Origin: Escherichia coli | GTDB taxonomy: Bacteria; Pseudomonadota; Gammaproteobacteria; Enterobacterales; Enterobacteriaceae | DNA: 64,000 nt | Strand: one strand, 5' to 3' | Assembly: GCF_003334255.1 (NCBI RefSeq) | Contig: NZ_QOWU01000014.1 | In this document: piece by piece, positions 2,208-64,000 of the stretch | Numbering within the stretch: position 1 is the stretch's first letter | Layout: every line of letters begins with the position of its first letter | Program-made: the position numbers and the translations under genes | The notes under the pieces: model-generated | Seen by the model: only the letters and a program-made list of their open reading frames with translations | What the model was told of the DNA's origin: nothing | The model's database searches: none

Positions 2208-3599
2208 TTACTGTTTTTCTGGTGGGAAAATCAGATTCAGCACGATGGCAGTAATACCGCCCGCGGCGATCCCGGAGGAGAGCAGGTTTTTCAGCCATTC
2301 AGGGGCAAACTGCAAAATCAGCGGCTGCTGAGACACGCCCAGACCAACCGCCAGCGACAGCGCGATAATCAGAATCGCCCGACGGTTCAGCGGCTCACGA
2401 GAAACGATACGCACACCGGAGGCGGCGATGGTGCCAAACATTACAAGCGTTGCGCCGCCCAGAACCGGTTCTGGAATGTGTTGTACAAAACCGCTCACTG
2501 CCGGGAACAGACCCAGCACGATCAACATCAGCGCGACGACAAAACCGACATAGCGGCTGGCAACACCAGTCAACTGGATCACTCCGTTGTTTTGCCCGAA
2601 GCAGGAGTTCGGGAAGGTGTTAAACACCGCCGAAACAAACGAGTTCAGGCCGTTTGCCAGCACGCCGCCTTTCAGGCGTTTCATGTACAGCGGACCGGAC
2701 ACTGGCTGTTCGGAAACGTCAGAGGTCGCCGTGATATCGCCAATGGTTTCCAGCGAAGTGATCATAAAGACCAGCATCAGCGGCAGCAGCAGACTCCATT
2801 CAATGCCAAGACCGTAATAGAGCGGCGTTGGCACCATAATCAGTTCTTGCGTCATAGGTTCGTTGCTTTCTGGCAACATGCCCATAAACCACGCCAGCGC
2901 ATATCCGGCCGCCATCGCAATTACCAGTGAGGCCACGCGTAAGTAAGGGTTACGTTGACGGTTAAGCAGGATAATTAAGGCTAAGACCACGCCTGCCAGC
3001 AGCAGATTTTTCGGTGCGCCGAAGGTGTTATCGCTCATGGCTGCGTAACCGCCGCCAATGGACGTTAACCCAACCTGAATTAGCGACAGGCCGATAATCA
3101 TCACCACAACGCCAGAAACCAGCGGCGTAATAATGCGGCGCGCCAGATGCAGAACGCGGGAGATCACCATCTCGGTGCAACTTGCCAGCATCAACGTGCC
3201 GAACAAAGCCGCCATCATGGTAGGAACATCAGCACCACCGGTTTTCAGCGCGGTACCGCCCATAATCAGCGGGGCAACAAAGTTGAAGCTGGTGCCCTGA
3301 ATAGACAACAGCCCGGAGCCAACCGGACCCCAGGCCTTAATTTGAATAATCGATGCCACACCGGAGGCAAACAGCGACATACTAATAATGTGTTGCGTGT
3401 CTTGTGCCGGTAAACCCAGCGCCTGGCAGATTAATAGCGCTGGCGTGATCACCGCAACGAACATCGCCAGCAGATGCTGACAGGCGGCAAACAGGGTTTG
3501 AGGAAGCGGCGGACGATCTTCAAGACGGTAAATCAGTTCGCTGTTTTGAGTCTGCGCAACCGGTTGCGCATTTTCTGACTCGAGGGTGGAAACAGACAT
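2208..3599 (-). CDS. xanP: xanthine permease (NCS2 family)
   Basis: polytopic membrane ORF; ATG 3 codons inside track ORF gives 463 aa starting [12 protein letters not shown]. Confidence 0.85.
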
Positions 3600-3878
3600 C
3601 GAAAACAATCCCGTGGTAGCAAAGCGGGCATTTTAGCTGACCGAAAGAGAAAAGCAAACGTTTGCCACATCCTCATCTAAATATTTAAATGAGATAAATG
3701 CACTTTTTTATATAACTTTTGGTATTTTTCTGCTTAAAATCCATGCCATTTGTTCATTAACAGCTGAGAATTTGACCCAGGAAAGCATAACTCGATACCC
3801 GTCATAGTTCATGAAGTTGCCACTGCGCGATGAAGTATGACGAGTATGAAAGAGTGATGCGGATACAAAGGAGTAACT

Positions 3879-58194: not shown

Positions 58195-59331
58195 ATGGAT
58201 CTATTGATTGTTTTAACTTACGTGGCGCTGGCGTGGGCGGTCTTTAAAATCTTCCGCATTCCGGTAAATCAGTGGACGCTGGCGACGGCGGCGCTGGGAG
58301 GCGTGTTTCTGGTGAGTGGTTTGATTTTGTTGATGAACTACAACCACCCTTACACTTTTACCGCGCAAAAGGCAGTGATAGCGATCCCTATCACGCCACA
58401 GGTGACGGGAATTGTTACTGAAGTCACTGACAAGAATAATCAGCTTATTCAAAAGGGCGAGGTGCTTTTTAAGCTCGACCCGGTTCGTTACCAGGCGCGA
58501 GTTGACAGACTTCAGGCTGACCTGATGACGGCGACGCATAATATAAAGACGCTGCGTGCGCAGCTCACTGAAGCGCAGGCCAACACCACCCAGGTTTCAG
58601 CGGAGCGCGACCGTCTGTTTAAAAATTATCAACGTTACTTGAAAGGCAGCCAGGCGGCGGTGAATCCGTTCTCGGAACGTGACATCGACGATGCGCGGCA
58701 AAATTTCCTCGCGCAGGATGCGCTGGTGAAAGGCTCGGTGGCGGAGCAGGCGCAGATCCAGAGCCAGCTCGACAGTATGGTTAACGGCGAGCAATCGCAG
58801 ATTGTGAGCTTAAGAGCGCAACTTACTGAAGCAAAATATAACCTTGAGCAGACTGTCATTCGCGCGCCGAGCAATGGCTACGTTACTCAGGTACTGATCC
58901 GCCCAGGTACATACGCAGCTGCCTTGCCGCTGCGTCCGGTGATGGTCTTCATCCCCGAGCAAAAACGGCAAATTGTCGCCCAATTTCGGCAAAACTCGCT
59001 GTTACGTCTGAAACCCGGCGATGATGCGGAAGTGGTGTTTAACGCGCTACCTGGGCAGGTGTTTCACGGCAAACTGACTAGTATTTTACCTGTCGTGCTA
59101 GGCGGTTCTTATCAGGCGCAGGGGGTATTGCAATCATTAACGGTCGTGCCCGGCACGGACGGTGTGCTGGGAACCATTGAACTGGACCCTAACGATGATA
59201 TCGATGCCTTACCCGACGGCATCTACGCCCAGGTGGCGGTTTACTCCGACCATTTCAGCCATGTTTCGGTGATGCGGAAAGTGCTGCTAAGAATGACCAG
59301 CTGGATGCATTATCTTTATTTGGATCATTGA
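58195..59331 (+). CDS. yibH: HlyD-family membrane fusion protein
   Basis: 378 aa with N-terminal TM and coiled-coil; 3 bp after yibI. Confidence 0.85.
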
Positions 59332-59790
59332 GGGGGAGGGGGGAGATTATGGAACTTTGCTCCTTGTAAGGACTAATTATTTTTGCATATTACTTCATTA
59401 GCTGCGATGATTTTTCTTTAATATTCATTATGTTAATAAGTTCTGGATGAGTGTGCTCTCATTGGATTTTTTATCCGTCTTGTTCTGCCGCAGGATGAGA
59501 CTATACATCGTCGAGATCGCAATGATGATATGAGTTGTTCCTCCTGCGACGGCTCTAATCAAAAAAGAGCAGGAGTGCTTTTCCATCTATTGCGATGATG
59601 GCTTTATTATCTGAAGGATGACAGTCACATTTAAAAAATATTTAATCTATAGATCACAATGTAGGGTCATGGAATATATGTATACAACTATTTTCTTCTT
59701 CACTTTTAATTATCGTATTCATTATAAAACTAAGTTAAAAAAACTCCTGGAGAGTGAGTTATTAATATATTTTTAAATAAAATTAAGTTA

Positions 59791-60228
59791 TCATTCATCG
59801 ATGCACTTTATAGAATCATCAATGGCCATAATAGTACTATTAACTCTCAATTTTATATTTTTATCATCACTACAAATATTAACTGAATTTATATCAATGA
59901 TTTTTTTATTCTTATCTTTTATTTTATTTACTGTTTCAATGCAATCAGCGGCAAGTTGGAGTGGATTTAGATTTTTCAGATATGGTCTTATGATCTTTCC
60001 CTTACTTAATAAATAGCATGTATAGGATTCGGAAAGTCCAGCATCTATTTTGTACCTCATTATATTAGATAAGGATGTGAGAAATTCCTTGTTATCATTC
60101 GCAGCCATATATGCCAGTCCGAGTTCAGCCTCTGCGGCCTTACAGGCAAAATAGCTTAGTGAACACGCTTTTCGTCCCTCTTTAGTACTGGCTGATATTA
60201 GTGCCCATAATATTGCTTTGTCTGCCAA
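59791..60228 (-). CDS. hypothetical protein, possible immunity gene of the decayed rhs module
   Basis: 145-aa AT-rich ORF immediately downstream of the rhs remnant; TTG start in track, first in-frame ATG is 40 codons in; weak Sel1-like segment KAAEAELGLAYMAAND. Confidence 0.35.
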   Translation of the reverse strand: MADKAILWALISASTKEGRKACSLSYFACKAAEAELGLAYMAANDNKEFLTSLSNIMRYKIDAGLSESYTCYLLSKGKIIRPYLKNLNPLQLAADCIETVNKIKDKNKKIIDINSVNICSDDKNIKLRVNSTIMAIDDSIKCIDE

Positions 60229-60316
60229 ATCTAACTCTCTCTGAAATTGTCTTGCAGTAACTGCACTCGCAGAAATAGAGAAAAAAATACAATTGTTAAT
60301 AATCTTGCCATATTTT

Positions 60317-60930
60317 TTAGTCCGTAACTGTTAATGTGCTATCTGGCTCTGAAAATATTAACTCATTTAATTTTTGCATGTCATTAGATAAACCAGTTAT
60401 ACAACCCTCGGAACAGAATCGAGGTCCTAAAGACGGACCAAAAGCGTTTAAACAACTATGTATTGAAAATCCATTGCGATTATAAGTTCCTGTATTAACT
60501 GACGGTACTAATCGTATGCCGTCAGGTTTTCTATTGCTTGCTCCCGGGTCATTAACATTCCAACTCCATAGGCCTTGAGGTATTGGCCATCTATTTATAA
60601 ATGTGTACAACGGGGATTATTTTTACATTGCATATTATTACCAGAAGCGACTGGAATACTAAGCACATCATAAAAATTATCATCACATGGTATATCTGAA
60701 ACACACGAAAGCATACCTAAAGTTATGCTGTATAAACAGGTGGCTAATCCCAAGGGGATCGATTCCAGAAATCGGGTTCAACGGATACTGATAAAAATTC
60801 CACCTACCTTCCAGCCCAATCGGAGCCTGAGTGTTATACCGCCCCTGCTGCGGTTAATGTTACCGATAATAGTTATAGTACAGCCCTGATTCATCATCAT
60901 ACTACTGCTGCGGCAGTCTGATGAACTATT
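60317..60930 (-). pseudogene. decayed orphan rhs C-terminal fragment (frameshifted)
   Basis: 60750-60930 encodes a degenerate Rhs core end ([32 protein letters not shown]) that hits a stop near 60600, while a 97-aa ORF 60317-60610 continues in another frame. Confidence 0.55.
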
Positions 60931-60934
60931 GCTT

Positions 60935-61396
60935 TTACGGATTCTCCTTATTCTTCCTTCTATCCATTCGCTTTAGCTTTTTGAGCTCTTGAAGTTTGCT
61001 CTTTGCATCAATATTACCGTTATTTACAGCGAATTCCATCCAATAAATAGCTCTATTCAAATTATAATATTCTGATAATGTTGGATTTGTATCTGATAAA
61101 AAGACCCCATAATTAAACTGCGCTGTAACATTCCCCTGAGATGCTGATCTTTCCAAGAATCGCAATTGTTTGTAAATGTTATTTTTAGTAAAGCAGTAAT
61201 ATTGATATAGTCGAAATGATGCCTCTGAATCACCATGTTGTGATTTATACTTCAGTTTCATCAACTTTTCTTCACTTAAATCATAGGTCATTGCTGTAGA
61301 CCCCATCATACTTTCGTTTTGTTTTATTTTCACATCAGCACCATGCAATTGACAAATAAAAGAGAAATAAAAAAATAGTAACAAGCATGCTTTCAT
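60935..61396 (-). CDS. yibG: Sel1-repeat protein with N-terminal signal peptide (YibG-like), candidate immunity protein
   Basis: 153 aa; hydrophobic N-terminus MKACLLLFFYFSFICQLHG then Sel1-like repeat SASQGNVTAQFNYGVFL; directly downstream of orphan rhs tip. Confidence 0.75.
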   Translation of the reverse strand: MKACLLLFFYFSFICQLHGADVKIKQNESMMGSTAMTYDLSEEKLMKLKYKSQHGDSEASFRLYQYYCFTKNNIYKQLRFLERSASQGNVTAQFNYGVFLSDTNPTLSEYYNLNRAIYWMEFAVNNGNIDAKSKLQELKKLKRMDRRKNKENP

Positions 61397-61407
61397 ACAT
61401 CTACAAC

Positions 61408-62346
61408 CTATCTTATATCACTGGGTTTTTCTGGCGTACCTTGCATATTAGAAATGGGGTGCCCAGATGGCCCATATGTTATCCAATTACCAAGGTCTTT
61501 TGTTGTTATAGCCATTAGATCCTTATTTGAATTAAGGTTCGTTGGTGCTGTTAGCACTGTATCCATTTTTAACTTACCATTAGTTCCTCGCCCCCACCAC
61601 GTCCATAGCGTGTCAGGTCCTATTACATTTGTATGTAACTCTTTAGCTAATTGGCTAGCAAATGAATTTTGTCCTTTACCTGTATTACAAGAAAATAACC
61701 AAACTGTCATCCCATCTTTATAATTCCCATCAAATTTAATTAGATATGCTAGATCTTTAGCTGTCATGATACTGCGCGTTGCGGATTCAATAGATGTGGG
61801 GGTACCATGCCCCCCGATTGTGAAAACGCCTGGGATATTAATCTCATCAGCTACAGAATGGATAAGATCACTTTCGGGGTATAAATTTATATCAACCAAA
61901 CCTTGCGGATCTACATTTATGACCGGATTCAACGGATACTGATAAAAATTCCATCCCCCCTTCAGTCCAATCGGATCCTGAGTGATATACCGCCCCAGCA
62001 GCGGGTCATAATAGCGGTGGCGGTTGTAATACAGGCCGGACTCCTCATCATACTGCTGACCCGGCAGGCGAATGAGCTGCTGCAGATGATGCGGGTTCTC
62101 ATCACTCAGCAGGTTGCCCCATTCATCATATTCTGCGCACCACGCTGTTGCCCCTTCCGTGCTGATGAGCGCCAGCGGCAGGCCGCGATGGTCGCAGTGG
62201 TACAGGTGGATTTTTCGCGCCGGCGTGTACACCGGGTCCATCTGGTTTTGCATCTGCTCCACGGTCAGGCCGCACGATGCCAGCCAGCGGCGGCTTTCCT
62301 CACTCACCCGGTCAGCCAGGATTTCACTTTCCAGCCGGTCGAGCAT
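61408..62346 (-). CDS. orphan Rhs C-terminal toxin module (core end plus variable CT)
   Basis: starts inside Rhs core homology (MLDRLES...[26 protein letters not shown]...[39 protein letters not shown]) followed by about 160 aa of unrelated sequence; ATG at third codon of track ORF. Confidence 0.75.
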
Positions 62347-62393
62347 CTGCACCGTGCCGGCGGGAATCCCCCACTGTGCATAGGCAACTCACG

Positions 62394-63236
62394 CTATGAA
62401 CGCTTCAGCTTATCAATAGCGGAAGTTATAATTTCATTGTCATCAAACTTGTACAACATAGTATCTAAAACAGGAAGTAGCGTTTTATCACCTAATTCAC
62501 CCGCAGCTTCAATGATATCATCATAAACAGTATTTTTTTTTAACTCATCGCATAAAACAGATAAAACCCTTTTATCTTTTCTGTAGGAAAGTCCGATTAT
62601 TGCTTCAATACGGACTTCCTCATTTTTATCCTGAAGCATCTCCACAAAACAATCCCTAATATCACTATTATCATATTTATTGATATTTATTGCAAATGCG
62701 GCCCAGTTTCTGACATCTCCATTTGGATCTTTTAACAGATTAATCAATAGTGGAATTGTTGCTTTATCATTGATAACAGAAATAGCAAATGCTGTAGCAC
62801 GTCTGACATTAGTCGATTTATCAAAAGCAGTAATTTGAGATTGTTCTACTATTTTAGGTGAATAAATTGGGTTTTTCTTGCATCGCTGAGCTGTTGACTC
62901 GATTGCCGTAGCTCGAACGCAAGCGCTCTTATCATTCAATGCCATATTGTTCAAAATATTAAAAACATTATCTTCGCATTTTTTGCAAATTTTTATTTGC
63001 CCGAGTATAAATGCTCCGATATCTCTACGGATATAATTTTTATCAGAGCAGAACTCAATTGCCAATCTAACAGCGTCTTGCCCACCTCTTAACTGTAATA
63101 CTCTGGCAGATGAAATCCTTTTCAAGGAATTGTGATCATCAAGTAAGCGAAATAATTCATCATCATTTAGTTTCTTACATTGATTATATAAACCATACTC
63201 TTTACTTGCCTTTCTTTTCTGGTATGTATTTGACAT
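62394..63236 (-). CDS. yibA: HEAT-repeat protein YibA, candidate immunity protein for the main Rhs tip
   Basis: 280 aa from internal ATG (MSNTYQKRKASKEYGLYNQ); directly downstream of main rhs stop. Confidence 0.8.
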   Translation of the reverse strand: MSNTYQKRKASKEYGLYNQCKKLNDDELFRLLDDHNSLKRISSARVLQLRGGQDAVRLAIEFCSDKNYIRRDIGAFILGQIKICKKCEDNVFNILNNMALNDKSACVRATAIESTAQRCKKNPIYSPKIVEQSQITAFDKSTNVRRATAFAISVINDKATIPLLINLLKDPNGDVRNWAAFAININKYDNSDIRDCFVEMLQDKNEEVRIEAIIGLSYRKDKRVLSVLCDELKKNTVYDDIIEAAGELGDKTLLPVLDTMLYKFDDNEIITSAIDKLKRS

Positions 63237-63256
63237 TGCAGGAACCTCCACAAGGG

Positions 63257-64000
63257 CTATCTTTTTTTATCGTTTGACTGTCTGGAGTGACGACAATTCC
63301 AGGCTTTCTGTGTGCTTTTTGCATCTTTAGCACTAATATCACCACAATCAATTAGTTCCTGAAGTACGTCACATCTGTCGGGTTTTTTCCCATCACTCCA
63401 GAATCTGTCATTTATTATGTCATTGACACGATCAGTTATCCCTGTGTCTGCAACATTTCCACGAGAAGCTATCATTGTTATATCTAATGCTAGTCCCGGA
63501 TTATTCAATATTAGAGAGTCAAATATTCTTTGTGATGCTGTATCGTTCCACCATTTTGTCAATGCTTTTGCAGCATTATCATCTGCTTGCTGCTGTGCAG
63601 GGCTTTTGGGCCATGGAATTGGCAAGGGGAATGGTCTAGGAAAAACTTCTAACCCCAGAGGATCTGTATTCGTAACTGGATTCAACGGATACTGATAAAA
63701 ATTCCATCCCCCCTTCAGCCCAATCGGATCCTGAGTGATATACCGCCCCTGCAGCGGGTCATAATAGCGGTGGCGGTTGTAATACAGGCCGGACTCCTCA
63801 TCATACTGCTGCCCCGGCAGGCGGATAAGCTGCTGCAGCTGATGCGGGTTCTCTTCATTCAGCAGGTTGCCCCATTCATCGTATTCTGCGCACCATTCTG
63901 TTGTCCCTTCCTTGCTGATAAGGGCCAGCGGCAGGCCGCGATGGTCGCAGTGGTACAGGTGGATTTTTCGCGCCGGCGTGTACACCGGGTCCATCTGGTT
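63257..64000 (-). CDS. rhsA: 3' end of main rhs gene (core end plus C-terminal toxin tip), partial at window edge
   Basis: frame open to window end; encodes ...[26 protein letters not shown]...[39 protein letters not shown] then about 130-aa variable tail; gene symbol by synteny only. Confidence 0.75.

Follow-up and report, generated by a model that had tools for sequence, protein, structure and literature searches.

The tail of the Escherichia coli rhsA element: three toxin/immunity modules, one with a predicted clan CD peptidase tip and a Sel1-repeat partner

Background

In Rhs proteins the core forms a shell around the toxin tip, which is cut off at a DPxGL motif, and in strains bearing a type VI secretion system (T6SS) the tip is delivered into neighbouring cells. 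The subject of this work is the tail of the Escherichia coli rhsA element, a polymorphic toxin locus, as it occurs at positions 59791-64000 of a 64,000-nucleotide stretch of E. coli DNA (contig NZ_QOWU01000014.1); this whole stretch is referred to below as the window. The layout of the rhsA locus was already known, and of the three toxin/immunity pairs in it two can be placed in catalogued families. The third pair consists of the orphan tip yibJ and the Sel1-repeat protein YibG.

The closest described systems are found in the literature on polymorphic toxins. The table of Zhang et al. 2012 (PMC3482391) lists Ntox34, characterized by GNxxD and WxCxH motifs, with an Imm-HEAT partner and RHS carriers, names Imm16 and Imm57 as partners of Tox-LD-peptidase in RHS carriers, and gives Imm36 as the immunity protein of Tox-Caspase. 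Ntox34 has been listed with characterised nuclease domains (PMC9635880) and labelled an RNase motif (PMC8263058). In Poole et al. 2011 (PMC3150448), Hill and colleagues are cited for the observations that the C-terminal part of RhsA from E. coli stops stationary-phase cells from recovering and that this toxicity is neutralised by yibA. The motif of Tlde1a was described as H-x(14-17)-(S/T)HGC (PMC9638812). For RhsA of E. coli O157:H7, an in silico study found a tip that lacks a motif and resembles PDB entry 3HO6, with a Sel1-like immunity candidate downstream, and its authors inferred small-GTPase inhibition, possibly phosphatase activity, from this likeness; their polymerase chain reaction (PCR) data showed that strain EDL933 has the fused form and HB101 the PF15606 tip (PMC7216683).

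Results

Identity and layout of the locus

Many E. coli chromosomes matched the segment 59000-64000 at 99.9% identity, and 2476 of the 5426 complete E. coli genomes contained a place that covers 80% or more of it. In the RefSeq annotation of the best-matching genome the order is mtlA, yibI, yibH, 'Imm57 family immunity protein (frameshifted)', 'RHS repeat-associated core domain-containing protein (internal stop)', yibG, a second RHS core-end pseudogene, yibA, 'RHS element core protein' and yibF, and this order identifies the modules as the tail of the classical rhsA element. Each of the genes concerned is encoded on the minus strand. The locus contains three unrelated tips with an open reading frame (ORF) downstream of each, and its features are the following:

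63650-64000, minus strand: 3' end of the rhsA core (the gene runs past the window), with the PxxxxDPLGL motif at 63650-63664
63257-63649, minus strand: C-terminal toxin tip of RhsA, 130 amino acids, with an Ntox34 domain at 63275-63499
62394-63236, minus strand: yibA (so named by PGAP), HEAT-repeat protein, matching NCBIfam PRK09687 (E 3e-140) and Pfam HEAT_2
61897-62376, minus strand: core-end repeat of the orphan (yibJ), about 157 codons, with a DPQGL terminus at 61897-61911
61408-61896, minus strand: orphan toxin tip, 162 amino acids plus stop codon, predicted clan CD (caspase-like) cysteine peptidase domain
60935-61396, minus strand: yibG, Sel1-like repeat protein (PGAP 'sel1 repeat family protein'), with a signal-peptide-like N-terminus as judged by hydropathy
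60746-60953, minus strand: third core-end remnant, decayed, about 61 codons, with four in-frame stops and a DPLGI terminus at 60746-60760
60317-60756, minus strand: decayed Tlde1/LD-peptidase-type tip, split over two frames (60598-60756 and 60317-60595), with H-x16-SEGC kept
59791-60311, minus strand: Imm57 immunity gene with a 1-nucleotide deletion in a T-run of the signal-peptide coding region

The initial annotation of this DNA had described three minus-strand modules of like layout, with a candidate immunity gene behind each of the main, the orphan and the decayed tip. All three were present essentially where it had placed them, its reading of the architecture was right, and the gene names yibA and yibG agree with RefSeq. 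The core ends had a GC content of 55-61%, against 23-45% for the tips and the genes downstream of them.

Repetition of the core end was analysed by blastn with the full rhsA gene of locus L001. The orphan sequence 61907-62376 was 94.3% identical to rhsA nucleotides 3261-3731 over 471 nucleotides (E = 0), and the remnant at 60774-60953 was 76.5% identical to nucleotides 3531-3713 over 183 nucleotides (E 9e-35). These values are far beyond chance, which speaks against the possibility that the core-end homology was a misreading. In a three-way DNA alignment the core end was common to all three modules and was followed by abrupt divergence. Model TIGR03696 (Rhs-associated core) matched the main and the orphan core end with E values of 6.4e-25 and 4e-25, respectively. 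The NCBIfam model RHS_core was matched at positions 1147-1261, its last 115, by the main core end (E 1.2e-69; Pfam RHS also matches) and at positions 1111-1261, its last 151, by the orphan core end (E 2e-90). The 5' end of rhsA, where an N-terminal PAAR domain would be encoded, lies outside the window; in the L001 copy the first 200 amino acids match the RHS_core model only.

Some details of the earlier description had to be revised. The orphan had been read as about 100 core codons followed by a 160-residue tail; the core repeat is there, with the longer extent and the 162-residue tail listed above. The third core-end remnant is frameshifted as claimed, its tail lying in two frames as a result of two frameshifts, but it also contains four in-frame stop codons (60928, 60904, 60862 and 60856). 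PGAP flags both the orphan and this remnant as pseudogenes, the latter labelled 'internal stop'. The rhsA homology of the remnant begins in the last six codons of yibG (60935-60953) and shares their reading frame, thus the stop codon of yibG sits in former rhs core sequence.

The orphan tip and its partner YibG

The yibJ tip matched no Pfam family even at E 10, and no NCBIfam model. The newer PGAP annotation of the orphan pseudogene reads 'DUF8616 domain-containing protein', and literature searches found no papers on DUF8616 and no functional study of yibJ or yibG. The reading frame of the tip is intact, and in-frame GTG and ATG start codons exist in the orphan ORF. A word-indexed search with the tip returned E. 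coli and Salmonella relatives only; a full profile search returned 729 cluster representatives at E<=0.001, 116 of them at E<=1e-10, and the relatives included tips of full-length Rhs proteins (1337-2449 amino acids). Three to six spaced His/Cys domains similar to the yibJ tip were also seen in giant proteins of 3000-7400 amino acids (P0028-P0040, P0058 and P0069), and these arrays resemble the arrays of caspase-like domains (processing peptidases) of Zhang et al. 2012.

In an alignment of 39 sequences, whose members were 29-52% identical to the query, the sole invariant columns were His30, Gly31, Leu67 and Cys70. The invariant His and Cys are encoded by 61807-61809 and 61687-61689 and correspond to His182 and Cys222 in the numbering of the 314-residue orphan ORF. 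The AlphaFold2 model derived from this alignment (predicted local distance difference test score, pLDDT, 83.7; predicted template modelling score, pTM, 0.83) places them directly after strands 24-28 and 64-68. The conserved His-Gly and Cys, each behind a predicted hydrophobic beta-strand, form the arrangement expected of clan CD, and the predicted fold is of the caspase/hemoglobinase alpha/beta type. Independent support below the threshold came from comparing the members one by one with Pfam: the four strongest families were C13, DUF4347, CHAT and C80, which like C25 belong to the clan CD group; the other six families were scattered single matches. Sequence-profile searches of the PDB found nothing with a 4-sequence alignment and, with the 39-sequence alignment, only sunflower asparaginyl endopeptidase (legumain; E 0.58), in which the His-Gly and the Cys were aligned. 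We predict with moderate confidence that the yibJ tip is a clan CD cysteine peptidase of the 'Tox-Caspase' type using His182 and Cys222. It falls into none of the curated clan CD families.

This prediction bears on the published view of the O157:H7 tip. By its title, entry 3HO6 deals with the InsP6-induced autoprocessing domain of toxin A, a protease domain; its likeness to the tip fits the His/Cys dyad and points to a cysteine peptidase, and the small-GTPase reading appears to be mistaken.

The repeat profile of YibG was weak (Pfam TPR_27, E 0.006), and the precomputed Sel1 matches of its homologues were 'faint'. YibG-like Sel1 proteins were located directly downstream in all seven related tips examined, among them an orphan tip of Salmonella salamae (downstream protein 42% identical to YibG), a metagenomic orphan tip (45%), a full-length Rhs beside VgrG and PAAR genes (27%) and three further full-length Rhs genes, where one of the YibG-like ORFs had been missed by the gene caller. 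Six of the seven YibG-like proteins had a signal-peptide-like N-terminus, one of these six only if translation is taken from an upstream in-frame ATG. As the linkage between tip and Sel1 protein holds over tip identities of about 30-50%, YibG is most likely the cognate immunity protein of the yibJ tip and the toxin would act outside the cytoplasm. The proportion of Sel1 partners with a signal-peptide-like N-terminus suggests that the target of yibJ-type toxins is probably in the periplasm or cell envelope. On the Salmonella enterica subsp. salamae contig (L003:1638-3898) the yibJ-orphan homologue and its YibG-like gene were followed by two more orphan cassettes, one with a TseH-type tip and Imm58, the other with a PLA2G12-like tip.

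Population variants

The yibJ tip was found in 3497 of the 5426 complete E. coli genomes, with at least 99% identity in 3488 of the 3497; the MG1655 copy was 99.8% identical. In O157:H7 the same tip ends a 1409-residue protein that scores above the RHS_core equivalog threshold. This full-length rhs gene is followed directly by yibG, and neither the Ntox34 tip nor yibA is present. Such an arrangement is the product to be expected if the DNA between the main core end and its repeat in the orphan were deleted. Taken with the 471-nucleotide repeat, the O157:H7 form indicates that, as expected of an Rhs element, an orphan tip carrying a core-end repeat can replace the main tip. A query spanning the O157-type junction gave 309 records whose best place was at least 99% identical, a figure confounded by joined BLAST pieces of K-12-type loci and not used as a count. 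Other strains had further arrangements, including an orphan yibA without toxin.

The Ntox34 and Tlde1-type modules

The tip of RhsA matched Pfam Ntox34 (PF15606) over the complete model (1-80 of 80; E 2.9e-43) and contains both motifs of the family, GNxxD as RGNVAD and WxCxH as WNCRH. YibA matched Pfam HEAT_2 twice (E 3e-9 and 7e-6) and, by hydropathy, has no N-terminal hydrophobic segment. RhsA tip and YibA are the catalogued Ntox34/Imm-HEAT pair, for which the literature provides experimental support; the tip is a predicted nuclease and YibA is its cytoplasmic immunity protein. In E. coli SCU-102 (L008:8371-9213) yibA has persisted as an orphan immunity gene with no Ntox34 tip, downstream of a different main tip and accompanied by NTF2-fold and DUF6258 immunity candidates.

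The 97-residue ORF of the third tip gave weak Pfam matches to Tlde1_dom (E 0.008) and YkuD (E 0.038). Its homologues at 50-87% identity carry PF10908, and an intact copy in strain SCU-102 (90% DNA identity) is annotated 'tlde1 domain-containing protein'. In a tblastn search with the intact homologue P0170, residues 5-60 were found at 60598-60756 and residues 62-153 at 60320-60595, in two frames and with 82-87% identity. The motif of the subfamily, H-x16-SEGCI, preserves the first His and the Cys and has Glu for the second His in eight of eight homologues. A profile of this Tlde1-like subfamily gave only chance matches in the PDB (alphavirus capsids and others), and no solved Tlde1 structure was found by sequence.

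The 145-residue ORF reported behind the third remnant (59791-60228) exists, and it retains the whole domain of Pfam Imm57 (PF15596; E 1.7e-47, model 1-100 of 100), but it is not a whole gene. It represents the 3' portion of a gene of 173 codons that suffered the 1-nucleotide deletion near its 5' end. The intact 173-residue homologues P0190 and P0193, the latter standing for a cluster of 542 sequences, start MARLLTIVLFFSISANA and have a signal-peptide-like N-terminus; in the window copy the deletion separates the ATG and the signal peptide from the domain. The frameshift, in the T-run, lies within 60270-60311. PGAP marks the Imm57 gene 'frameshifted' in all records opened, i.e. in WG5 (K-12-like), O157:H7, E8 and SCU-102, in the last of which the adjoining tlde1 tip is intact.

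Module 3 is thus best read as the catalogued Tlde1/Tox-LD-peptidase and Imm57 pair in pseudogenised form: its coding sequence is interrupted by the two frameshifts in the tip and the four stops in the attached core end. With a dead tip and an Imm57 partner deprived of the export signal, the module probably does not function any more. Zhang et al. 2012 (PMC3482391) list Imm57 in gammaproteobacteria with Tox-Caspase as well as with Tox-LD-peptidase. The former association may be a neighbourhood artefact: at the locus studied here Imm57 comes downstream of a caspase-like tip because the intervening LD-peptidase tip has decayed.

A very AT-rich stretch (59600-59950; 23-26% GC) spans the yibH-Imm57 spacer and the adjoining 3' end of the Imm57 gene, with short unannotated ORFs only (59428-59586 and 59618-59776). 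In the NCBIfam search the three tips matched nothing apart from Rhs core models, and YibG and the 145-residue ORF gave spurious weak matches only. An Rfam scan of 59000-64000 at gathering thresholds gave no match. Scans for consensus promoters (15 promoter-like sites, 16.1 expected from shuffled sequence) and terminators (3 terminator-like sites, 3.2 expected) were of no evidential value.

Discussion

Taken as a whole, the data are best explained, with high confidence, by the 3' part of an E. coli rhsA element in which displaced cassettes follow the main toxin gene of a polymorphic toxin locus. RhsA consists of a conserved, GC-rich YD-repeat core, the DPxGL motif, at which the tip would be cleaved, and an AT-rich, exchangeable toxin tip. 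Behind each tip lies its own immunity gene or a candidate for it, and the two displaced tip and immunity cassettes downstream have retained a piece of the core end that could provide a handle for recombination. If the DNA between the main and the orphan core ends were deleted in this way, the Ntox34 tip would be lost together with yibA and the full-length gene would end in the orphan tip. The yibJ tip, as a caspase/legumain/cysteine protease domain (CPD)-like peptidase of clan CD, would act in the periplasm or envelope and be neutralised by exported YibG, while module 3 would represent a dead Tlde1-type peptidoglycan LD-peptidase tip with an Imm57 deprived of its export signal.

The complete functional prediction for the second module, namely that the yibJ-type tip is an active clan CD peptidase toxin in the periplasm or envelope of target bacteria and is blocked by exported YibG, is put forward as a tentative one. 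Several observations weigh against it. None of the clan CD families of Pfam (C13, C14, C25, C80, CHAT and DUF4347) was matched significantly, the best values of individual members being 2e-3 to 8e-2. Foldseek found no PDB structure at E<=0.001; the best match was a Vibrio cholerae protease domain at E 7.8e-3, TM-scores were about 0.35, and nitrilase-superfamily amidases were among the matches. The related Tce1 and Tce2 of Pseudomonas aeruginosa, which lack an immunity gene, did not prove toxic in E. coli (PMC13323088). One Sel1 partner (L012) is without a signal peptide, hence a periplasmic site of action is not universal, and the promoter scan, being no better than with shuffled sequence, does not show expression of the orphan genes as far as the sequence can tell. 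In our search of the literature we came across no interbacterial toxin of caspase fold that acts on a periplasmic target and has been characterised by experiment. A rival reading of the fold is that the tip is another Cys-dependent hydrolase built on a similar alpha/beta sandwich, such as a nitrilase-superfamily amidase. As the 39-sequence alignment contains neither an invariant Glu nor an invariant Lys, the nitrilase-type assignment was rejected, and such a hydrolase is very improbable.

Two further explanations concern the role of the orphan cassettes rather than the fold of the tip. Everything downstream of yibA could be neutral debris of past tip replacements, devoid of present function. 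The decay of module 3, seen in four stops, two frameshifts and the lost signal peptide of its immunity gene, and the PGAP pseudogene flags on orphan and remnant are what one would expect of debris; the yibJ tip, however, has an intact ORF that is at least 99% identical in nearly all carrier genomes (3488/3497), it serves as the tip of a full-length Rhs in O157:H7, and its pairing with Sel1 proteins is conserved down to about 30-40% identity, so that we regard debris as rather unlikely. The cassettes might, on the other hand, be no silent reservoir but toxin-antitoxin modules expressed from within. Salmonella Rhs tips with internal promoters and toxin-antitoxin behaviour were described by Starsta et al. 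2020 (PMC7043789), genomic SELEX (systematic evolution of ligands by exponential enrichment) in K-12 located constitutive RpoD promoter sites at yibA>yibJ, yibJ>yibG and yibV>yibU (PMC3946193), and the in-frame GTG and ATG codons of the orphan ORF offer possible starts. The export signal of YibG would nevertheless bring it into the wrong compartment for neutralising a toxin made in the cytoplasm, and the consensus promoter scan did not rise above the shuffled background; internal expression of this kind appears improbable.

For Rhs architecture the rhsA locus is a textbook case that adds nothing new, with the O157:H7 variant illustrating how an orphan tip takes the place of the main tip. What is gained is a correction. 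The toxin and immunity domains had been considered not assignable to any characterised family, but profile searches of the tails and the downstream ORFs, for the third tip with the help of its homologues, place modules 1 and 3 in catalogued families (Ntox34/HEAT and Tlde1/Imm57), for one of which an experimental test exists. With two pairs catalogued, the open question narrows to the yibJ/YibG cassette. The suggestion that this is the best place in the window to look for unstudied toxin biology therefore does not apply to the locus as a rich source, only to the yibJ/YibG family, which is widespread in E. coli and has been described in silico only, in one instance with what appears to be a wrong functional conclusion. 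The resulting hypothesis is that the tip is a clan CD peptidase with the dyad His182/Cys222, acts in the periplasm and is countered by a Sel1 immunity protein. If it is true, the yibJ tip would have a new target as its substrate, either a protein of the envelope or a peptide of the peptidoglycan, and the retention of yibG in about 64% of E. coli genomes would be accounted for.

Compared with the E. coli K-12 rhsA element (rhsA-yibA-yibJ-yibG-yibV/yibU), the window has the same site, gene order and sequence, and it is a strain-level variant of that element. RhsA (EDL933_4854) and RhsAI of O157:H7 have a tip and a yibG identical to those in the window, the difference being that the tip is on the full-length gene there and an orphan here. 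With the Ntox34/Imm-HEAT pair of Zhang et al. 2012 the RhsA/YibA pair shares the full-length Pfam match, both motifs, the RHS carrier and the HEAT gene directly downstream, and no difference was found. The Salmonella T6SS effectors Tlde1/Tldi1 and the Tox-LD-peptidase/Imm57 pair are the relatives of module 3: homologues of its tip carry PF10908, and the signal peptide of intact Imm57 fits a periplasmic peptidoglycan target. The Rhs-borne subfamily differs from Salmonella Tlde1a in having SEGC in place of (S/T)HGC and Imm57 in place of Tldi1 as immunity protein, and the window copy is a pseudogene.

For the yibJ tip the nearest systems are clan CD peptidases, namely C80 of MARTX, TcdA and TcdB, the DUF4347 proteins Tce1 and Tce2, and Tox-Caspase. 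They share with it the His-Gly...Cys dyad after hydrophobic strands and provide the best structural matches, but the yibJ tip has no significant Pfam membership in these families, and no sign of activation by InsP6 was seen. Tox-Caspase of Zhang et al. 2012, like the yibJ tip, is found at the C-terminus of RHS toxins and also occurs as domain arrays in giant proteins. In contrast to Tce1 and Tce2 of P. aeruginosa, which have no immunity gene and look anti-eukaryotic, yibJ-type tips are accompanied by a dedicated and mostly exported Sel1-repeat partner.

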